Source of the DNA: Parcubacteria group bacterium SW_6_46_9
Lineage (GTDB): Bacteria; Patescibacteriota; Minisyncoccia; Phycocordibacterales; SW-6-46-9
Assembly (NCBI GenBank): GCA_003022255.1
Contig: PXPA01000011.1
Span: 1 to 41,337, forward strand
Direction: 5' to 3'
Length of the DNA: 41,337 nucleotides
Shown: positions 3,930 through 38,013 of the stretch, in pieces
Layout of the letters: every line of letters begins with the position of its first letter
Numbering within the stretch: position 1 is the first letter of the stretch
Made by a program: the position numbers and the translations under genes
Notes under the pieces: generated by a model
Told to the model about the DNA's origin: nothing
The model's database searches: none
Seen by the model: only the letters and a program-made list of their open reading frames with translations

Positions 3930-5346
3930 ATGTCAACCGATACCGTAACCCGTTGGCCAAACCGCTGGGTCTTCATTCTTGCTGCCGTTGGTTCGGCGGC
4001 CGGATTAGGAAACATCTGGCGATTTCCCTTTCTTGCCTTCGAGCATGGCGGAGCTGCGTTTGTTCTCGTGCTCATTCTGGCGACACTCATTGTTGGTTTG
4101 CCACTTTTAACCTTAGAAACCGGGCTCGGACAGAAAACAAAAATGGCTGCTCCGGCCGCTTTGGGTAGTATCAAAAAACCGTTACGTCTTGTCGGCTGGA
4201 CCGCGCTTGTGTTTTCCTTTTTTGTGATTGCTTATTACATGTCTGTGCTTGGCTGGGGGGTTGATTATCTGGCCAGCTCATTTGATCTGCTGTGGGCACA
4301 GGAGACCAGCTCGTACTTTTTTGATACTGTCTTGAACATTAGCGAAAGCCCCGGATCAATTACCGGCTTTTCCTGGCCGGTTGTGGCTGGTTTTGTTATC
4401 AGCTGGATTCTTGTCTACTTTTCTGTCTGGAAAGGTGTAGAAAGTGTCAGCAAAGTGGTTATCTGGACGGCAACACTACCGATGGCATTGCTTGTTATCC
4501 TACTTGTTCGCGCCGTGACACTTCCCGGTGCTGGGGCCGGCGCAAGTATTTTTCTCGCTGTCTTTGGCCTTTGGGATTATGATCGCTTACAGCAGCTACA
4601 ACGCGGATACGGCTCCGGTACTGGCAAATACCGTCTGGATTCTTATCGGTAACATTATCGTGAGCCTTCTCGCTGGCGCCGCCGTCTTTGGCACCTTAGG
4701 GTACATGGCAGCAGAGCAGGGAACCCAAATTGCCGAGGTTGTGGCCGGCGGACCATCACTAGTGTTTGTCGTTCTGCCGGAAGCGATATCCTTACTGCCT
4801 GCTTTCTCAAGCCTGTTTGCCGTCGCCTTCTTTGCCACGATTGTCATGCTGGGAATCGACAGCGCCTTCTCAATCCTGGAAGGTATTGCCGCTGGGTTCA
4901 AGGATGCCCTCCCTAATCTTTCCGTAAAAAAAGTTACGCTAACACTCTCTGCTGTTGCTTTTGTTGCCGGCCTGCCTTTCGTCACCGATGGTGGCTTGTA
5001 TCTGCTTGATACACTTGATCACTTTACAATCAACTATGGGTTAGTGGCAATCGGTGCACTGGAGGCCGGGATTGTCGGCTGGCTGTATGAAGATGAGCTC
5101 AAAGCGTATATCAACAAACGTTCAGGCTGGCAGGTGGGAAACCTGTGGAGCATAGCTTTAAAGTATGTGATTCCGCTGTTTTTGGCTGGTTTGTTTATCG
5201 TGAATACGTATCAGGAACTGCAGGCGCCGTATGAAAGCTATCCTGTCTGGCTACTACTTGCTGTCGGAGTTATTCCGGTTGCGCTAGCACCAGGCATTGC
5301 TTATCTTGTCGATTATCTCACATTCCAAAACGCAGAAACTGAGTAG
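3930..5346 (+). pseudogene. sodium:neurotransmitter symporter (SNF/NSS) family transporter, disrupted by a frameshift and a probable small deletion near 4528-4560
   Basis: ORF 3930-4652 has WPNRWVFILAAVGSAAGLGNIWRFPFLA. ORF 4528-5346 has AQVFFSLSLAFGIMIAYSSYN. These are consecutive NSS motifs in two frames. About 20 aa normally lying between TLPGA and QxFFSLS appear to be missing. Confidence 0.7.
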
Positions 5347-12417: not shown

Positions 12418-13107
12418 CTACAATAACTCTATAGTACGGATTTCATTATTTGTAAAGCGGTACAGCATAGCCGGTCGATGCGGTCCGTCCGTCTTCTTCT
12501 CGCCCGTTTCCTCTAAAGACAACTTCTTTTTGATTTTCCGGCGGAAGTTACGTTTATCTAGTTGTCGTCCTAAAATTTCCTCATACGTATCCTGCAGTTG
12601 CGTTAATGTAAATTTTTCTGGTAACAGTGTTTTTGTTATATTCGTATACGTTAGTTTTGCCTGCAATCTGTCCACAGCAGTATCAAGAATCTTGTTGTGG
12701 TCATACGCTAGTTTGCCAATATCTGCCACTGGCTTCCAGAATGACCGGCCATCATCGGCAACGGTGAGCTTAGTCGGCGGTGCTAATGCTAAATACGCGA
12801 CTGATACTACTCGACCACGTGGATCTCTGTTAACACCACTAAACGTATATAGTTGCTCTAAATGCGTATGATCAGGATTCATACCCCCCTTCTCTTCAAG
12901 GTGGCGTCGAGCCGAATCTTCGGCGGTCTCGGTTGGGTCAATTAGTCCGCCTGGAAACCCGGCGATATCTGTATAGTGTGGTGGTGTATGTACATCAATT
13001 AGCAGCGTTTGTAGCTTGTCTTCATAGACAGCAAACAGCACCGTGTCCGTAGCCAGTACAGCAAACTGCAAATCTTCCTTGTCGGATGTTTTGTTGTCGT
13101 CGGTCAT
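12418..13107 (-). CDS. nrtR: NrtR-type regulator (Nudix domain plus C-terminal winged helix)
   Basis: It has a degenerate Nudix box (GFPGGLIDPTETAEDSARRHLEEKGG), RDPRGRVVSVAY, LAYDHNKIL, FTLTQLQDTYEEILGRQLDKRNFRRK and HRPAMLYRF. This matches the NrtR family pattern as I remember it. An alternative upstream start exists at 13152. Confidence 0.75.
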   Translation of the reverse strand: MTDDNKTSDKEDLQFAVLATDTVLFAVYEDKLQTLLIDVHTPPHYTDIAGFPGGLIDPTETAEDSARRHLEEKGGMNPDHTHLEQLYTFSGVNRDPRGRVVSVAYLALAPPTKLTVADDGRSFWKPVADIGKLAYDHNKILDTAVDRLQAKLTYTNITKTLLPEKFTLTQLQDTYEEILGRQLDKRNFRRKIKKKLSLEETGEKKTDGPHRPAMLYRFTNNEIRTIELL

Positions 13108-20458: not shown

Positions 20459-20880
20459 TGCTCAGGGTGGGAACCTCACGTAGACATAACTTCTTTTGAA
20501 ACCAGAGTGGGATTCCTCTCCAGTCAGCTGCCTGACGGCAGCTGCTTCCGAGCCGGACCTCGCCGTCTTCGCCTTCTCGCTTCGCCCCTCACATGGATTC
20601 GTTACATAACTTTGATGAAAAACTTTACAGCTTGGTACCCATCAATGGTCCATGCGAGGGGCTTCGATCAAAACTCAGACATGGCTGCGGCCTTCGAATC
20701 CCACAAAAACATGCATAAATGCATGTTTACCTAGCTATATTATAAGCAAGTACCGAGCTAAGGTGCTTAACTTGTAAGTGCCTTAGCTCGGTTCCTCGGA
20801 AAAGAGAGGCAGTGAGCGAGAAATCGCGCGAACGTCAGAAGATGAGTCGACGAAAGGGTTTTTCTCTCCGAGCCCTATTG
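20459..20880 (-). repeat. non-coding island downstream of tRNA-Leu, ending in a degenerate copy of the tRNA-Leu 3' end (20459-20475); contains the f-module of the tRNA-linked repeat family and two long hairpins
   Basis: 20459-20475 tgctcagggtgggaacc compares with tRNA-Leu 20881-20894 tgcccagggcggga (12/14). On the minus strand, gattcgaaggccgca, atgtctgagtttt and gacggcgaggtccggctcggaagcag parallel the Arg- and Val-linked copies. Hairpins lie at 20707-20728 (10-bp palindrome plus T-run on the minus strand) and 20752-20792 (12 bp perfect, extendable to 18 bp). Confidence 0.6.
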
Positions 20881-20965
20881 TGCCCAGGGCGGGACTCGAA
20901 CCCGCATGCGCGTAAGCGCGACGGCCCTCAACCGCCCGTGTATACCAAGATTCCACCACCTGGGC
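20881..20965 (-). tRNA. tRNA-Leu (anticodon GAG), class II with a long variable arm
   Basis: The reverse complement is gcccaggtggtggaatcttggtatacacgggcggttgagggccgtcgcgcttacgcgcatgcgggttcgagtcccgccctgggca. The anticodon stem is ggcgg/ccgtc and the loop is ttGAGgg. Confidence 0.9.
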
Positions 20966-20973
20966 ATCGGCAT

Positions 20974-21639
20974 TCATAGCTGCATATCCACTTTAGCTAA
21001 TGCTTCTTTGATTTTCAACCGCTTTCGTGAAAGGTACGTAATATCATTAGAGTGATACATATTTCTTAACAAATTCATAGACTCATCTTTTGCGTATTTA
21101 AGTTTATAAACCTTACTATTTTTCGATTTACAAATATGTCCACGAATATCAATAAATTTGTTTATATTCTCTCGTAGCCAGTCGATATGGTCTTCACTGG
21201 CTGAATTAAATACGGTATAAAACATATAACTAGATTCCCAGCGCTTATCCCAAAAGCTGTAAAAACAACCATCCCCATCAAAAAGACCGCGTAAAAAATC
21301 AAGAAAATACTTATCGGGAATATCGATTGACCCAATTGTTTTGGACTTGGCAGTTGTCAGCCCAATGTCTTCTAAAAAAGAATAAAACAGCACATCACCA
21401 AACTGAACTCTTCCACATCTTCCACCCCTGCCGTTCTCTTTTTCAGATATTTTTACATGCTCTATATCTAAACATCTCACAAAGTTTTCTAGCTGCTCTT
21501 CATCTTGAGAAGTAAAATCGAGATGCCTGCCATTACTTGAAAGACATCCATCGGCTGTAAAAAGCCCGACTGCATATGCAAAATCAGGAGACCAGGTAAT
21601 ATCAACTACTCCTTTGGGTTTTGGGCCAGGTTTTGCCAC
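20974..21639 (-). CDS. free-standing double-motif LAGLIDADG homing endonuclease
   Basis: There are two LAGLIDADG-type motifs, FAYAVGLFTADGCL and FLRGLFDGDGCF, about 100 aa apart. The stop codon is 8 nt upstream of the tRNA-Leu 5' end on the same strand. Confidence 0.85.
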   Translation of the reverse strand: MAKPGPKPKGVVDITWSPDFAYAVGLFTADGCLSSNGRHLDFTSQDEEQLENFVRCLDIEHVKISEKENGRGGRCGRVQFGDVLFYSFLEDIGLTTAKSKTIGSIDIPDKYFLDFLRGLFDGDGCFYSFWDKRWESSYMFYTVFNSASEDHIDWLRENINKFIDIRGHICKSKNSKVYKLKYAKDESMNLLRNMYHSNDITYLSRKRLKIKEALAKVDMQL

Positions 21640-23948: not shown

Positions 23949-24052
23949 GGGCGGTTAGCTCACCCCAAGAGTACTTCTTCGTCAGTAAACTGACTCAGGG
24001 CGCAGCTGGCAAGTTTGCCAGCTTCGCTAACCACTTTTTAAAATTTAACTAT
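23949..24052 (+). repeat. exact copy of tRNA-Val nt 1-14 (23949-23962), followed by the repeat-family core (b-module, 23961-24006) and a 9-bp hairpin
   Basis: gggcggttagctca is identical to 24053-24066. The core is caccccaagagtacttcttcgtcagtaaactgactcagggcgcagc. The hairpin agctggcaa/ttgccagct lies at 24004-24023. Confidence 0.7.
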
Positions 24053-24125
24053 GGGCGGTTAGCTCAGCTGGTAGAGCGTCTCGTTTACACCGAGAATGTC
24101 GTAGGTTCAAGTCCTACACCGCCCA
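24053..24125 (+). tRNA. tRNA-Val (anticodon TAC)
   Basis: The sequence is gggcggttagctcagctggtagagcgtctcgtttacaccgagaatgtcgtaggttcaagtcctacaccgccca. The anticodon stem is tctcg/cgaga and the loop is ttTACac. Confidence 0.92.
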
Positions 24126-24311
24126 CAACGAACAAAGTGAAAAGTGAGTTGTGGCGGTGAGCAAGCAACTTTCTTTGCTTGCATTCGGGCTTGAAAGCCG
24201 CAACTATATCTGAGTTTGCCAAGCTCTGCTTGGCGGGGCGTAGATAGTGAGGCTCGGCGCGAAGGCAAAACTCGTCAGAGTTTTGACCGAAGAGAAGTCC
24301 TACACCGCCCA
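24126..24311 (+). repeat. hairpin-rich tRNA-Val trailer (e- and f-modules), ending in an exact 20-nt copy of the tRNA-Val 3' end plus flank
   Basis: 24295-24314 aagtcctacaccgcccacaa equals 24109-24128. The trailer start caacgaacaa...gagttgtg parallels the tRNA-Arg trailer caacgagcaa...gagttgtg. atatctgagttt at 24206 is shared with 25594. Confidence 0.7.
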
Positions 24312-24321
24312 CAAATTCAAA

Positions 24322-24348
24322 AACAGCGTCCATTCGGGCGCTGTTTTT
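24322..24348 (+). terminator. rho-independent terminator after the tRNA-Val unit
   Basis: The stem is aacagcg/cgctgtt (7 bp) with a 10-nt loop, followed by TTTTT. Confidence 0.7.
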
Positions 24349-24359
24349 ATATTAGATGT

Positions 24360-24601
24360 TTAGATGTGTAGGACTCGAACATGGAAAGGGGGCGGGAAAA
24401 CTCCAGTTTTCCCGTGTTGGAAAGCAGTCCGCCGCAGGCGGACGTTGAGAACCGTGGGATAAAACAGAACCTTCTTTCTGTTATATCCGATTCTGCTCTT
24501 GGCGGAAATTTCGAATGTCGAATGTAATGAGACAAGAAATAGGAGGCCTCGAAGAGGTTAAAACGCAGGAGCGAAGCGACGAGTGGTGAGGGTCCTACAG
24601 C
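24360..24601 (-). repeat. inverted member of the repeat family, bounded by inverted tgtaggac / gtcctaca ends
   Basis: The left end is tgtgtaggactcgaac, the reverse complement of a T-arm/acceptor-like gttcgagtcctacaca. The right end is gggtcctacagcacaca. 24565-24595 gcaggagcgaagcgacgagtggtgagggtcc matches the type-B core seen at 33455-33493 and 36830-36870. Confidence 0.5.
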
Positions 24602-24696
24602 ACACACAAATTTTGTTTAAACAATCAAAGAAAAAGGCTCTGCCCGAGAGAGCGGACAGAGCCTGTAGTCGTCCCTGAGTGACAGAGACCGAGAGG

Positions 24697-25323
24697 TCAA
24701 AATGTTCGGGCTAACCCGAACTGGAAAAAGAATTCTTCCTGAGTGATCTCGTACTGTGTTCCGACAATCAGCCCGGTTTTGTTGTTGATTGAATGAGTGT
24801 ATTTTACACCCACCTGCTTAATGATGTAATCAACAGGCTTAAAGTCAACCAACGCAGCACTGAGCGTGAACGGACCTGGAGTGTAAAAAGCCACTACACT
24901 CCGAGCAAAAAACTCCGGACTCATTTCAAATCCAGATTCTTGTGTACCGGCTGACCATTCATGCCAGAGCCATACAGTTAAATTGTCGATCGGGTGGAGG
25001 TTAAGCCGAACCCCGCTCCACGGCACACCGGAAAATTGCCCAACGTTACCCGATATTGTCATCCAGCTTGTTACCGGGTATGTGCGGACGAAGTAAGCTC
25101 GCTCAGAATTGCCTTGAAGCGCGAACCAGTTGCCGGGCTGCTCTTTTTGGTACGTCCAGCGCACATCCAGCCCAGACGTGATAACTCCCGTACCGAAAGT
25201 GACTACTCGAGAACTCAATTCAAACCCACCAACCTCCTCCGGAGCTACCTGGGCAATGGTGTTACCAGGAAAGCTGAGGAAAGCGAGTGCGAGAAAGCAG
25301 AACAAAAAGCAACGAGGATTCAT
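24697..25323 (-). CDS. secreted protein with beta-strand periodicity and a C-terminal Phe (outer-membrane beta-barrel-like)
   Basis: Likely start is ATG at 25323. The signal peptide is MNPRCFLFCFLALAFLSFPGNTIAQ. The mature ~185 aa show alternating hydrophobic patterns and end in FFFQFGLARTF. Confidence 0.55.
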   Translation of the reverse strand: MNPRCFLFCFLALAFLSFPGNTIAQVAPEEVGGFELSSRVVTFGTGVITSGLDVRWTYQKEQPGNWFALQGNSERAYFVRTYPVTSWMTISGNVGQFSGVPWSGVRLNLHPIDNLTVWLWHEWSAGTQESGFEMSPEFFARSVVAFYTPGPFTLSAALVDFKPVDYIIKQVGVKYTHSINNKTGLIVGTQYEITQEEFFFQFGLARTF

Positions 25324-25534
25324 TGGAGGGTGCTCAGTTGTGAAGGAAGATAACGAACCCTGAACTATGTAAATATTAATACATATAAGCATAATAGTCA
25401 AACTAAACACGTGTCGCTTTCCGCTGGTTTTACATTACTCTCAACCACTAAAATCGCTCCGATGCAGCACTACATTGGCTAAATCTAGTTAGAATGCTTA
25501 TGCCAAGCGTGCTTTAACCAGATGAGCGTCTCTT

Positions 25535-25694
25535 GGGGGTAGAACTTCACTCTAAGAGTATCTCCTCGTCAGCAAGCTGACTCACAGTACAGCATATCTG
25601 AGTTTCAGCTTTGCTGAAGCCGAGGACGACGGGGTGCAGGCTACGAAATTTCTGCATCGAAAGCATTATTTGCAGTCGAATCCTACACCGCCCA
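25535..25694 (+). repeat. contiguous 160-nt copy of the repeat family (degenerate 5' tRNA-like piece, b-core, f-module), ending in a 15/16 copy of the tRNA-Val 3' end
   Basis: The start is gggggtagaacttca. The core is cactctaagagtatctcctcgtcagcaagctgactcacagtacagc. The middle is atatctgagtttcagctttgctgaa..., and the end is tcgaatcctacaccgccca. Just upstream, gagcgtctc equals tRNA-Val nt 21-29. Confidence 0.65.
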
Positions 25695-25787
25695 CCAATT
25701 AATACTTAAGCATTTTTGTTTGATTATATTAGCGTAATATTACATAATATTTTTGTGTCTGTTCCTTTCATAAGAACTTATTCTGAT

Positions 25788-29574: not shown

Positions 29575-29707
29575 TGTCTACAGTATAGTCTACGAAATTT
29601 TTGTGAGCAGTCTATTTCTATGGGATCTGCGAAAACCGAGCGAGTAGAATCAACTGGGTGAGCACCGTGCCAGAGAACCTGGATCATGAGTTCGCCAGAG
29701 CGAAAAC

Positions 29708-33080: not shown

Positions 33081-33184
33081 ATATTGTTATTATACTCATT
33101 ACACAAAAATAAAGCAAAATAAAAATAACTGCGGATCTCGGTTTCTACCGAATACACTTTCCGGATAAAGACTCTCTGCAACCA

Positions 33185-33604
33185 ACTACCTAACGGGAAC
33201 TGCTTTCGAGTCGGGCCTCGATACCGTCGCCCTGTCCTTCTACAAGCTCATGACAGACTTGGATATACTGTGCTGTGAGTCAGATTACTAACGAGCAAAT
33301 ACTCTTGGGGTGCACCCTTCGATTCCTGACGAATATCGCAGTAAATACTAGCAGGAATCCCTTACGGTAAATCGGCTAACGCCGATTTCCTCCAGACCGA
33401 GCCTCGATATCCTCGCCTTGTGCTCACCAGGCTCGCACAAACCCGGATATATCTGTGCTGGGAGCGAAGTGACCGAATACTCGTGGGGTGCGGCTTTCGA
33501 TTCCTAACGAACATGCAAAACTGTACTAGTAGGAATCCTCTTCGATTCCTACACGAACGCACCAAACGGTGCGTTCTCGGAGTCACAACTCGCGTTGCTC
33601 GTTG
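33185..33604 (-). repeat. tRNA-Arg trailer (e-module) followed by two tandem copies of the repeat family
   Basis: The cores are 33270-33314 (gtgctgtgagtcagattactaacgagcaaatactcttggggtgca) and 33455-33493 (gtgctgggagcgaagtgaccgaatactcgtggggtgcgg). Two 9-bp hairpins are gaacgcacc/ggtgcgttc and gtaggaatc/gattcctac. The orientation is co-directional with tRNA-Arg. Confidence 0.65.
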
Positions 33605-33676
33605 TGCCTCCGGTAGGAATCGAACCCACATCTACGGGTTAGAAACCCGGTGCTCTATCCGTTGAGCTACGGAGGC
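33605..33676 (-). tRNA. tRNA-Arg (anticodon TCT)
   Basis: The reverse complement is gcctccgtagctcaacggatagagcaccgggtttctaacccgtagatgtgggttcgattcctaccggaggca. The anticodon loop is ttTCTaa. Confidence 0.9.
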
Positions 33677-33865
33677 AGTACTTCGCCCCTCACCCAGACT
33701 GTAATCTAACATACAAAATTTTGAATTCGTAACAAGACAACGATAACAATCTGGGTGAGGGGCTGCTTTCCTTCACCAAACCACGGAAAGCAAAACAATA
33801 GCGCACAACCTACTTGCCCTCCCGTAGCTTGAATAAAATGAAAGCGAAGGTGGGCTACGGAGGCA
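33677..33865 (-). repeat. tRNA-Arg leader: exact copy of tRNA-Arg nt 1-11 plus its 1-nt 5' flank (33854-33865), its complementary partner, and a 13-bp long-range hairpin
   Basis: gctacggaggca at 33854-33865 equals 33666-33677. The partner gccctcccgtagc lies at 33816-33828. The hairpin cccctcacccaga (33686-33698) pairs with tctgggtgagggg (33750-33762). Confidence 0.6.
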
Positions 33866-36476: not shown

Positions 36477-36739
36477 ATCTAATTATCAGTATAACGCATT
36501 ATTAGATAACGTATTATCAGATAGTATTAGCTGCTAAACTCATACTAGCCAAAATATGAAGAGTTGAGGGGGGTGAGGCCGAGATTGAGAAAGTCTCGCC
36601 ACAAGCGGGTTTTTTGCACCGAAACATCGCACGGGCTTAACTGTAAACCATCCCGGGCTAAAGCCTGGAGCTTTCAAATAGTCAAGATATAGCACCTTTC
36701 TTGCGAAATCAATCTATGTTACTGAGCGCCAGGCATGTC

Positions 36740-36900
36740 CGAAACGAACGAGCACCCCTTTTCTGAAGAGGCTCCGCAGCCGACAATGCATGGTCTACGA
36801 TTGTCGGTGAGGACTGAACCAAAATCGACGTGCTGTGAGCGAAGCGAGGGAATACTCTTAGGGGTGCTGGCGATTTTGGTGTACTCTTCAGAAAACGGGG
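36740..36900 (-). repeat. orphan copy of the repeat-family core, not next to a tRNA, enclosed by a 9-bp stem
   Basis: The core is 36830-36870 gtgctgtgagcgaagcgagggaatactcttaggggtgctgg. It is enclosed by ccaaaatcg (36819-36827) and cgattttgg (36871-36879). An outer pair is ctgaagag (36763-36770) with ctcttcag (36884-36891). Confidence 0.55.
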
Positions 36901-36912
36901 TGCGAGAGAGCG

Positions 36913-37236: not shown

Positions 37237-37248
37237 TGTTTTTGTTAA

Positions 37249-37986
37249 GGCTCTTGAGTAGAACAGCACTTCTAAGTGCTAACATATCCCTATATGGAGC
37301 CGAAAAACAAGTATGCATACCGTTCAAAGCTTTCCGAGTACCAAGTACGCCGAATTATGAAGCTCTTTGCGCTGGATCTGACCGCTACACAGATGGCAGA
37401 ACTAATGGATGTCGGCCGGAAGACGATAAACCGGTACCTTAAGGCAGTTCGGGGGCGGATGGCGCAAGCCTGCACGCAAGAAGCCAAGCTGGTTGGTGAC
37501 GTAGAGGTGGACGAAAGCTACTTTGGCCCAACCCGAGTCCGGGGCAAACGTGGACGCGGAGCAGCAGACAAAACACTCGTATTCGGCATGTTCAAACGTG
37601 ACGGGAATGTCTACACAGAGATCGTACCGGACGCTAAAAAACCGACGTTGCAAGGCGTAATTCGGGGTAACGTTGACCAAGACAGCGTAATTCACTCGGA
37701 TGGCTGGCGTGGCTATGACGGCCTAGCGGATGTTGGCTACGAAGAGCATGTTAGAATTACTCACAGTGAGGATAACTTCTCGGATGAAGACGGCACGCAC
37801 ATCAACGGTATTGAAGCCTTCTGGGGTACGGTAAAGACACGACTGACCGCTCGCCGTGGTATTCGTGATGAATACTTGCACCTGCACTTGAAAGAATGCG
37901 AGTTTCGATTCAACCACAGAGACGAAGATCTATACAAAACATTACTAGAATTAGTTCGAGAAAATCCGCTGTTCTACTCTTGAGCC
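37249..37986 (+). mobile_element. IS1595-family insertion sequence (738 bp) with 19-bp imperfect terminal inverted repeats and a 7-bp target-site duplication
   Basis: IRL at 37249-37267 is ggctcttgagtagaacagc. The reverse complement of IRR at 37968-37986 is ggctcaagagtagaacagc (17/19). The flanking direct repeat TTGTTAA lies at 37242-37248 and 37987-37993. Confidence 0.85.
37276..37983 (+). CDS. IS1595-family (ISXO2-like DDE) transposase
   Basis: 235-aa ORF with an N-terminal HTH (TATQMAELMDVGRKTINRYL). VEVDESYFG...RGRG...K..VFG...R.G.V...IV.D......L...I......VIHSDGWRGYDGL...GY.H..I.H is the ISXO2-like transposase pattern. Confidence 0.85.
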   Translation: MLTYPYMEPKNKYAYRSKLSEYQVRRIMKLFALDLTATQMAELMDVGRKTINRYLKAVRGRMAQACTQEAKLVGDVEVDESYFGPTRVRGKRGRGAADKTLVFGMFKRDGNVYTEIVPDAKKPTLQGVIRGNVDQDSVIHSDGWRGYDGLADVGYEEHVRITHSEDNFSDEDGTHINGIEAFWGTVKTRLTARRGIRDEYLHLHLKECEFRFNHRDEDLYKTLLELVRENPLFYS

Positions 37987-38013
37987 TTGTTAATTATGGA
38001 TAAAAACCAAACC

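Follow-up and report, generated by a model that had tools for sequence, protein, structure and literature searches.

We show here that the hairpin-rich repeats beside the tRNA genes of Parcubacteria group bacterium SW_6_46_9 belong to two short non-coding elements, one nested in the other. The longer element, which we call the f unit, lies directly downstream of tRNA genes with its junction at one position of the T-loop, and the tRNA 3' end is repeated at its far side; the shorter, the b core, is inserted into f units and recurs in other phyla. We somewhat favour a descriptive model in which both would be non-autonomous insertion elements, the f unit targeting tRNA genes, where it accumulates in tandem and decays, and b arriving secondarily. 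Both resemble known kinds, namely non-autonomous integrative elements for f, and very small dispersed repeats (SDRs) or inserts like Rickettsia palindromic elements (RPEs) for b.

The stretch that we analysed (the window) is the first 41,337 nt of contig PXPA01000011.1, assembly GCA_003022255.1. It is a bacterial chromosome segment and not a phage, with ddl, two Mur ligases, pilMNO, NAPRTase, sodA and ribosomal protein L19; ARAGORN finds four tRNAs in it (His, Leu, Val and Arg). We compared it with five syntenic contigs, L130 to L134, at 79-54% PilM identity. PilM homologues at 33-35% identity carry the source names Nomurabacteria, Paceibacterota, Parcubacteria or Minisyncoccia, which tentatively places the organism in the candidate phyla radiation; a PilM identical to that of the window occurs only on a short ENA metagenome contig.

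Results

f units at occupied and empty tRNA sites

The f core was scanned as a hidden Markov model (nhmmer) against the window, the related contigs and the b-bearing loci of other phyla. The units were found only directly downstream of tRNA genes and always in tRNA orientation: in the window at tRNA-Val, twice at tRNA-Arg(TCT), at tRNA-Leu and as the diverged unit B, and among the relatives at tRNA-Arg(TCT) in L132 and L133, at tRNA-Arg(GCG) in L130 and L133 and at tRNA-Ser in L130. The b-bearing loci of other phyla hold none.

At tRNA-Val, both tRNA-Arg genes and tRNA-Ser the junction falls on the same T-loop boundary (56|57), and in every intact case a direct repeat of the tRNA 3' end, 17-21 nt long, begins at nt 57, with identities of 20/20 (window Val), 16/17 (L132 Arg) and 21/21 (L133 Arg(GCG)). 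Orthologous sites can be occupied or empty. tRNA-Arg(TCT) is followed by two f units in L132 and by two in L133, and by a terminator-like hairpin only in L130, a relative with 79% PilM identity and the same gene order. At tRNA-Arg(GCG), L130 and L133 carry a unit and L131 does not, and the sequence 3' of the empty L131 site is that which stands after the repeat in L130; tRNA-Ser has an f unit in L130 and an empty site in L131, and tRNA-Val, occupied in the window, has an empty site in L133.

Architecture and fold of the f unit

The f unit contains no open reading frame (ORF) and measures ~165-170 nt, or ~185 nt with the repeat; the stretch between the repeats is 163-171 nt where measured (the window Val unit, L132 and L133). 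From the discriminator base onwards, it consists of a short spacer, which is the shared trailer CAACGARCAA...GAGTTGTG already recognised in the sequence-only reading, an anti-acceptor followed by AG, and an 8-bp hairpin, H0. The anti-acceptor is a copy of the tRNA 5' acceptor strand, complementary to the acceptor 3' strand. After H0 come CGU, the anti-T segment (the complement of the tRNA T-loop and 3' T-stem), GAAAGCCGCA and the core TATATCYGAGTTTG, then hairpin H1, AGGCGA...CGAG, and hairpin H3 with the loop CGUCAG or CGUUAG. The right end is the second tRNA copy, from nt 57 to the discriminator, with a few further bases. That earlier reading had also listed this second module with four stems of unrelated sequence, and all are present.

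Across 11 f units, 39 pairs fall into six helices, namely the acceptor-like helix, H0, the helix between anti-T and terminal fragment, H1, H3 and its extension. They are paired in 85.8% of cells, compared with 61.0 +/- 1.9% in shuffles and 36-47% when the partners are slid by 1-3 columns; both sides have changed in 31 of the 39 pairs, and the covariation score is 0.54, compared with 0.20 in shuffles and 0.07-0.13 for slid partners. None of 500 shuffles reaches the observed values. Single units fold at z = -7.45 and -5.58, with the acceptor-like stem closing the minimum-energy fold. The supposition that conserved stems of differing sequence mark a selected fold is therefore borne out for the f unit. 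On the tRNA-sense strand G-U pairs outnumber A-C mismatches (23 versus 9), which identifies this as the folding strand, whether in the form of RNA or of single-stranded DNA. The antisense segments fit their own tRNA best in most cases, with 0-3 mismatches of the anti-T to the cognate tRNA versus 2-6 to non-cognate ones, and they also match the element's own copy of the target sequence.

Form and distribution of the b core

The sequence-only reading had described one repeat family with at least seven copies in the window, linked to tRNAs and pointing the same way. We find instead two nested families with different distributions. A covariance model (CM) of b, trained on 24 distinct cores, recognises five copies in the window, at 42-54 bits and E-values of 1e-9 to 1e-13, and no other significant one; these are the five that had been placed near 23961, 25548, 33270, 33455 and 36830; a strict b pattern matches three times, with 0.00 matches expected from 100 shuffles. 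A weaker copy proposed at 24565-24595 reaches 5.8 bits (E=9) and resembles the core only because of a degenerate tRNA-Val 3' fragment at 24592-24609, and a possible copy at 29625-29700 gives no CM match. Linkage to tRNAs holds for the f unit and not for b. Likewise, co-orientation holds for every f unit on the four contigs that carry them, and not for b as such, which in L133 adjoins a tRNA in opposite orientation and elsewhere has no tRNA near it.

The b core consists of CCCCAAGAGTA, a hairpin and CTCACAGCACA, over 34-45 nt. As had been noticed, the central hairpin keeps its position and changes its sequence: it occurs as GUCAG/CUGAC, as GUUAG/CUGAC with a G-U pair and as a 2-bp GC/GC mini-hairpin, and pairing within it reaches 93.8%, C-G being replaced by U-A four times and long-stem variants occurring as well. 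The mini-hairpin, earlier counted in three copies as a gcgaag type, is present in two window copies, and the flanking GAGT/ACTC pairing lacks support because its bases are invariant. Three subtypes are common to several phyla (TTTCC/ACAGCAC, TTCGG/CCAGCAC and CTTCT/AGGGCGC). The complementary strand of b carries a short GC-GNA-GC hairpin, for example GCGAAGC, with loops that are mostly GNA or GNNA. The GCGAAGC shape is a very stable DNA mini-hairpin, and its presence hints at a single-stranded DNA step for b.

The hexamer CGTCAG/CGTTAG is both the conserved H3 loop of f units (for example 24274-24279 and 33388-33393) and the opening of the long hairpin in b copies A, B and C (TCGTCAGTAAACTGAC). 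This could be a coincidence, the result of recombination or a shared protein-binding motif.

Scans for b covered species-representative genomes and JGI metagenomes and returned many chance matches besides the clear set. Near-identical cores of 34-45 nt occur in Sulfurimonas and other Campylobacterota, in Bradymonadales, in an Oscillospiraceae metagenome-assembled genome (MAG) and in a Clostridium MAG, and b is present in at least five phyla (Campylobacterota, Bradymonadales, Bacillota, Fusobacteriota and the window lineage), with ~37 nt at 85-100% identity across them. BLAST also places it on the megaplasmid of Ilyobacter polytropus DSM 2926, an isolate with a finished genome, and that megaplasmid is the sole match of the b consensus in a plasmid BLAST. 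There (pILYOP01; NC_014633.1 219593-219893) a ~300-nt repeat combines a b-like module with a long hairpin whose loop carries another b-like half; by BLAST the repeat occupies 22 places on the 962-kb replicon.

Two kinds of association were rejected for b. A survey of relatives for tRNA linkage, as the earlier note had advised, finds f units at tRNA sites, and b of other phyla without an adjacent tRNA (one tRNA in 17 loci outside the window lineage, not adjacent). Nor is there a conserved gene beside b, its neighbours being unrelated housekeeping genes. Among the b loci examined, no split b halves flank a gene as an autonomous form would have them.

b cores as insertions

In Sulfurimonas, b lies inside long ORFs for MurB, a PepN-like peptidase, a Tex-like protein and a CobU-like kinase, in both orientations, and contributes 12-13 codons to ORFs that stay open. 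MurB orthologues with ~70-80% identity differ by exactly the 12-residue b block, and at the DNA level one orthologue without the block reads ACATGT^CACGG where two others have the same site plus 36 bases. A PDB alignment of MurB was suggestive of the insert and is superseded by these orthologue and DNA alignments. A diverged form of b is found in the MurB of what the sources name Candidatus Sulfurimonas marisnigri, on a 2.49-Mb contig.

The core also enters other repeats. In locus L089 one b is nested in another, as CCCCA[b]AGAGTAC, and in the window copy A interrupts a copy of tRNA-Val nt 1-19, as GGGCGGTTAGCTCA[b]GCTGG. Copies B, C and D share one site in the f unit, GCA^, which is empty in the window Val and Leu units, in the intact units of L130 and L132 and in the first Arg units of L133; as B, C and D are different subtypes, they represent independent insertions at one f site. 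An insert is preceded by CA (rarely TA), ends in CA and adds ~36 nt. Taken over these sequence contexts, b is an element of its own, separate from the f unit and spread across phyla, and it appears to be mobile. Since f and b both behave as insertions, with empty and filled sites, the recombination-site structure that had been offered as one alternative seems to fit best.

Further b insertions, or decayed ones, occur in opposite orientation in L133, at L133 positions 12937-12976 (Arg fragment) and about 100-130 (Lys fragment, downstream of tRNA-Lys), exactly at CCTG^CCGG of displaced tRNA 3' fragments, which is the junction of T-stem and acceptor stem. In Sulfurimonas and relatives (L005, L016, L030, L037, L050, L090 and L123) the flank TTGG...CATGTGG(A/G)A is nearly always found around b; in murB it is partly native coding sequence, and in L037 an uninterrupted TTGGCATGTGG lies within a local palindromic repeat. 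These flanks suggest a long preferred target or homology-assisted insertion.

Arrays in the window

The coordinates of the elements are collected in Table 1. At tRNA-Arg, 33170-33603 reads as a tandem, partly decayed array of three f units. The truncated displaced fragment of the first has an intact L132 equivalent, GATTCCTACCGGAGGCA. Unit D runs through a degenerate hairpin, anti-T TTAGGAATCGAA, GCCGCA, the b insertion and the core GATATATCC..., with H1 as UUGUGC/GCACAA and H3 as AAUCGG-CGUUAG-CCGAUU. Unit C comprises anti-T TCAGGAATCGAA, GGGTGCA, a b insertion, the core, H1 as CUGUC/GACAG and a decayed H3; its segment CAGGAATC pairs with the fragment GATTCCTGC that precedes it, with a compensatory change from A-T to G-C relative to unit D. 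Nothing supports the two ORFs listed here, 33362-33631 (-) and 33420-33665 (+), which run across both tRNA and repeats.

Downstream of tRNA-Val three successive elements are closed by Val-type 3' fragments, at 24295, 24592 and 25678. A hairpin with a T run (24322-24348) follows the first fragment, and the last closes a 1.07-kb segment that comprises a secreted-protein ORF (24697-25410) and unit B. The Leu unit contains H0, anti-T GTGGGATTCGAA, an empty GCCGCA, a core with expanded H1 and H3 as CAGCUGC-CGUCAG-GCAGCUG, and ends in a degenerate tRNA-Leu 3' fragment. Copy E of b has no adjacent tRNA. It is placed in the loop of ACCAAAAUCG/CGAUUUUGGU, which is itself enclosed by a 19-bp outer stem (36884-36903 / 36752-36770), with an f-like start at 36681-36696; the spacer between the tRNA_bind gene and pilM is 436 nt in the window versus 47-88 nt in relatives, so that the element holding copy E is another insertion.

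Table 1. Positions of tRNAs, f units, tRNA fragments and b cores in the window
Feature	Position	Strand	Support or remark
f unit downstream of tRNA-Leu (20880-20965)	20502-20728	-	nhmmer E 1.3e-3, outside training set
Copy of tRNA-Val nt 1-19 interrupted by b copy A (GGGCGGTTAGCTCA|GCTGG), then perfect palindrome AGCTGGCAAGTTTGCCAGCT	23949-24023	+
b copy A	23961-24004	+	CM 42.2 bits
tRNA-Val(TAC)	24053-24126	+	ARAGORN; Rfam
Intact f unit without b (Val unit), 168 nt	24127-24294	+	nhmmer E 5.9e-16; fold z = -5.58, acceptor-like closing stem
Val unit: spacer hairpin		+
Val unit: anti-acceptor GGCGGTG	24153-24162	+
Val unit: H0	24162-24181	+
Val unit: anti-T/GCCGCA	24187-24202	+
Val unit: core, H1, H3	24203-24294	+
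Displaced tRNA-Val 3' end (nt 57-73 + CAA)	24295-24314	+	20/20 identical to 24109-24128
Second, different tRNA-Val-linked element	24355-24609	+	anti-T GTAGGACTCGAAC at 24368-24380
Degenerate tRNA-Val 3' fragment GTCCTACAGCACACACAA	24592-24609	+	15/18 match
f unit B, diverged, b inserted	25530-25677	+	nhmmer E 3.6e-6
b copy B	25548-25591	+	CM 42.1 bits, E 1.3e-9
Third tRNA-Val-type 3' fragment GAATCCTACACCGCCCACCA, with CCA	25678-25697	+	85% repeat match
f unit C, no terminal tRNA fragment	33170-33345	-	nhmmer E 1.4e-12
b copy C, long hairpin GUUAG/CUGAC	33269-33312	-	CM 54.2 bits, E 6.8e-13
Second truncated tRNA-Arg 3' fragment (GATTCCTGC + TAGTA)	33346-33359	-
f unit D	33360-33523	-	nhmmer E 1.4e-13
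b copy D in the GCCGCA^ site of unit D; subtype TTCGG/CCCAGCAC	33454-33490	-	CM 49.6 bits, E 1.2e-11
Truncated displaced tRNA-Arg 3' fragment GATTCCTAC (tRNA nt 57-65), then TAGTA	33524-33537	-	fragment itself 33537-33529
Left part of f unit, core deleted, spacer hairpin CAACGAGCAACGCGAGTTGTG	33538-33603	-	tRNA-Arg array
Core-deleted unit: anti-T GTAGGAATCGAA, then GAG	33541-33552	-	12/12 match, T-loop + 3' T-stem
Core-deleted unit: H0	33556-33575	-
Core-deleted unit: anti-acceptor GACTCCG	33576-33584	-	6/7 match to tRNA-Arg
tRNA-Arg(TCT), host gene of the array	33604-33676	-	ARAGORN; Rfam tRNA 70.3 bits
Composite hairpin element holding b copy E	36740-36905	-	folding z = -6.35
b copy E	36829-36866	-	CM 53.9 bits

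Several observations concern the surroundings of these tRNAs. The second tRNA-Val-linked element has a counterpart in L133 (4790-5031, -), downstream of tRNA-Ser; the two share the core TTTCCCGTGTTGGAAAGCAGT...ACGTTGARAACCGWGGG...AAACAGAA, contain no ORF, open with an antisense T-arm of the local tRNA and close with a tRNA 3' fragment. A promoter-like site at 24015-24044 stands just before the real tRNA-Val, whose present promoter may thus lie on inserted DNA. Upstream of tRNA-Arg, 33677-33863 (-) holds a copy of tRNA nt 1-11 (33853-33863) ~190 nt upstream, an antisense copy of nt 1-11 and two hairpins, one with 22-bp arms (33685-33763), and a promoter-like site (33914-33886) lies upstream of the displaced tRNA 5' fragment. 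This stretch looks like a 5'-side counterpart of the f insertion; in L130 tRNA-Arg directly follows the promoter region, without a 5'-side insertion.

Searches for known families and mobilising genes

Neither element is described in Rfam or in the literature that we searched. Rfam 15, whose families include tmRNA, ROOL, GOLLD and small ribozymes, was run on all repeat regions and one relative at the gathering cut-off and at E<=10 and passes tRNAs alone, the best non-tRNA match being YrlA at 16.8 bits against a cut-off of 69; the failure of the sequence-only reading to place the repeats in a known RNA family is thus matched by the covariance search. Phage BLAST gave matches confined to tRNA.

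We found no integrase, reverse transcriptase, recombinase or IS110-type gene among the scanned window ORFs and the gene lists of L130-L134, and no domain match of the scanned ORFs to DEDD_Tnp_IS110, Transposase_20 or Phage_integrase. The integron integrase IntI was not seen among the scanned ORFs, and R/L boxes and dif-like motifs were not searched for. An autonomous relative of the f unit was not found in the window, in the five related contigs or, among the matches listed, in viral contigs, the genome and metagenome scans having targeted b; the viral-contig scan for the f core gave at least 119 chance-level matches and, among those listed, no real unit by nhmmer.

The mobility-type genes in the scanned window ORFs are an IS1595 transposase and a LAGLIDADG protein only. 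The former, a 235-aa DDE transposase (37276-37983), is flanked by 21-bp inverted repeats (90%) in an IS1595-family insertion sequence (37247-37988) that adjoins the start of the tRNA_bind gene. The latter is a free-standing LAGLIDADG-type homing endonuclease ORF of 221 aa (20974-21639, -), directly upstream of tRNA-Leu. Elsewhere in the window, a sodium:neurotransmitter symporter (SNF; 3930-5346, +) is split into two overlapping ORFs, 3930-4652 and 4528-5346, perhaps through a frameshift or as a pseudogene. At 562-619 / 2617-2674 there is a direct repeat of 58 nt (90%), and terminator-like hairpins that resemble each other stand at 277-317 / 2899-2939; together they suggest that a small gene was duplicated along with its terminator.

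Discussion

How could such short elements come to lie beside so many tRNA genes? The sequences themselves show insertion polymorphism at one position of tRNA genes with the gene restored, build-up in tandem, decay, nesting, and a selected fold in which antisense copies on the element pair with the tRNA-derived core. We infer mobilising enzymes, a single-stranded intermediate, and the direction and timing of the events that follow. An f unit would enter the tRNA gene between T-loop nt 56 and 57. Its left end would supply a new 3' end and keep the tRNA intact, and the original 3' end would be displaced to the right end of the unit, which would account for the direct repeat of 17-21 nt. If further units then entered the restored tRNA and parts were later deleted, the outcome would be a tandem, partly decayed array such as that at tRNA-Arg; this would also explain the three tRNA-Val elements and the co-orientation of the units with their tRNA. 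Entry of b at GCA^ of f units would be secondary.

With its antisense copies and three covarying hairpins, the tRNA-sense strand folds up as a rod that holds the tRNA-derived core in double-stranded form. Such a folded single strand, of RNA or single-stranded DNA, may be recognised by an enzyme acting in trans, by analogy with integron attC sites and the attP of CTX phage; most simply this would be a tyrosine recombinase of the kind that targets the T-loop. In an excised f unit the right end would be joined to the left end as ...GGAAAG|GATTCCTACCGG...CAC...

Several points weigh against this model. No mobilising gene was seen in the scanned window ORFs or in the gene lists of the related contigs, and neither an excised form nor an autonomous relative among the sequences examined. 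We know of no need of ordinary attP arms for covarying hairpins or antisense copies of the target; as the f unit has both, a classical integrase mechanism may be wrong. The structure was drawn by eye from the same 11 related units of four contigs, and two alignment rows had been altered, one by joining two pieces of the window into a chimera and one by trimming. The covariation, like the G-U bias, fits a functional RNA equally well. Finally, the ends given for b are approximate, and the murB site is without a clear duplication.

Known systems offer partial parallels. Islands and prophages that tyrosine integrases place at tRNA genes share with f the junction in the T-loop, the duplicated tRNA 3' end, the rebuilt tRNA, tandem arrays at one tRNA and orthologous sites that are occupied or empty; the f unit, however, is ~185 bp long, has no ORF and has no integrase found nearby, and its antisense target copies and covarying hairpins set it apart from ordinary attP arms. 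Sublocation classes of tyrosine integrases at tRNA genes were reportedly defined by Williams in 2002. The integron attC site and the CTX-phage attP(+) resemble f in keeping structure but not stem sequence, and in rebuilding a double-stranded core by a hairpin of sense and antisense copies. They differ in that f lacks an integron integrase, attI and a dif context, sequence being compared through Rfam only and the single strand of f being presumed. Miniature inverted-repeat transposable elements (MITEs) and CIMEs, the latter being cis-mobilisable elements derived from integrative conjugative elements, are like f non-coding, uniformly small and present in multiple copies, with a presumed trans enzyme. 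Unlike them, f has no terminal inverted repeats and no known autonomous parent, and its target is a specific tRNA-gene position, each unit being matched to its own tRNA. The bridge (seek) RNAs of IS110/IS1111 may be likened to f as structured non-coding segments complementary to the target and varying with it, but these elements, of ~1.2-1.5 kb, encode their own DEDD recombinase, and f units contain no such ORF.

For b, the closest descriptions are of SDRs in cyanobacteria, reportedly characterised by Elhai et al. in 2008, and of RPEs. To judge from these descriptions, SDRs and RPEs are likewise tiny, with a hairpin, and insert into other repeats, into themselves and into RNA-gene copies, and RPEs, like b, insert in frame into protein-coding genes that stay open. 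In contrast to b, with 34-45 nt and nearly the same 37 nt in at least five phyla, both are lineage-specific, and RPEs are 100-150 bp long. IS200/IS605-type elements have subterminal hairpins at both ends and insert 3' of a fixed short motif without duplicating it; b has one central hairpin and inserts next to CA.

Could the f unit instead be an RNA gene? Together with its terminal tRNA fragment it may be a putative tRNA-like non-coding RNA, co-transcribed with the tRNA and released by RNase P cutting at the acceptor-like stem and by 3' processing, in which one arm would replace the D and anticodon arms, the T-stem would be extended and a conserved ~100-nt core would take the place of the T-loop. 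Mobility would then be secondary, and the two are compatible. Transfer-messenger RNA (tmRNA) and YrlA similarly place an acceptor-like stem and a T-stem-like helix around a large non-tRNA domain, but f comes without an ARAGORN tmRNA call, a tag ORF or an rsr gene nearby. The RNA would account for the 6-7-bp acceptor-like closing stem and the discriminator identical to that of the cognate tRNA, for strong covariation in H0, H1 and H3 alongside a conserved CGUCAG/CGUUAG loop and conserved single-stranded stretches, for the excess of G-U over A-C on the sense strand, for the place of the Val unit between the tRNA and the T-run hairpin, and for the co-orientation of every unit with its tRNA. It is harder to reconcile with the absence of the unit from the same tRNA in close relatives, with decay in tandem (unit C has lost its 3' fragment and the first Arg unit its core), with tolerated b insertions in the core and with the lack of an Rfam match (YrlA, 16.8 bits versus 69), and we consider it rather unlikely as the primary explanation. 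Improbable, in our view, is that f units are attL/attR arms left behind when larger islands or prophages integrated at tRNA genes lost their cargo, without mobility or function of their own. T-loop-targeting integrases do leave a T-loop junction and a direct repeat of the tRNA 3' end, both of which are seen here, tandem arrays are common at tRNA genes, and the Val-linked segment 24610-25697 carries a cargo ORF (24697-25410). Independent deletions, however, would not yield one module order of 163-171 nt at five tRNAs on four contigs, compensatory changes show selection on the fold after divergence, and integrase remnants were not seen in the scanned window ORFs.

For b the alternative is a structured RNA motif, a small ribozyme or a regulatory element, whose conservation across phyla would be functional. 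It could draw on the ~37 nt at 85-100% identity, on the C-G to U-A change in the central hairpin and on frequent complementary flanks. We give it very little weight. ORFs accommodate b in both orientations, with 12-13 codons read across it, some murB orthologues have it and others do not, one b can be nested in another, Rfam offers no match and the neighbouring genes are unrelated; small self-cleaving ribozymes and cis-regulatory RNAs, by comparison, keep a fixed orientation in intergenic or untranslated regions. Chance similarity or an assembly or adapter artefact can practically be dismissed: most related sequences do come from metagenome assemblies, but no pattern matches are expected in shuffles, E-values go down to 1e-13, natural variants show compensatory changes, and the isolate Ilyobacter polytropus DSM 2926, whose genome is finished, carries b, as does, in diverged form, a Sulfurimonas murB. 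Other candidates were tried and rejected: a one- or two-piece tmRNA (no ARAGORN call and no tag), a group I intron within the tRNA (the tRNA is intact and Rfam gives no match), an archaeal-type T-loop intron (tRNA complete without splicing, no evident bulge-helix-bulge motif), a CRISPR repeat (no array), a selenocysteine insertion sequence (SECIS) element (TGA outside the frame used) and a sequencing adapter (the sequence has natural variants, and genomes of isolates carry it too).

Returning to the insertion model, a bolder version, which we regard as unlikely, would make f a guide-directed, programmable mobile element without an ORF, and b the smallest known mobile element with a cross-phylum range. 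The anti-acceptor and anti-T would choose the tRNA gene to be invaded, and a change of guide would retarget the unit to another tRNA. Either the RNA or single strand of the element would base-pair with the target, or a double-stranded copy of the target would be rebuilt for a host recombinase; b would be moved by a widely shared enzyme.

Both elements create false ORFs, false "tRNA fragments" and protein length variants, which annotation pipelines will misread. The near-identical 36 nt of b across phyla imply either that it often spreads horizontally and has a mobilising enzyme in common among its hosts, or that it is under a very unusual constraint. Ilyobacter polytropus DSM 2926 and Sulfurimonas species are hosts of b in culture. 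In the f unit, the target-matched antisense segments raise the possibility of guide-directed insertion. If f units do move, they would come close to the lower size limit of integrative elements, being not much more than a folded attachment site, and would illustrate how the tRNA genes of very small genomes can be colonised harmlessly, because each unit rebuilds the tRNA and pairs the displaced fragment.

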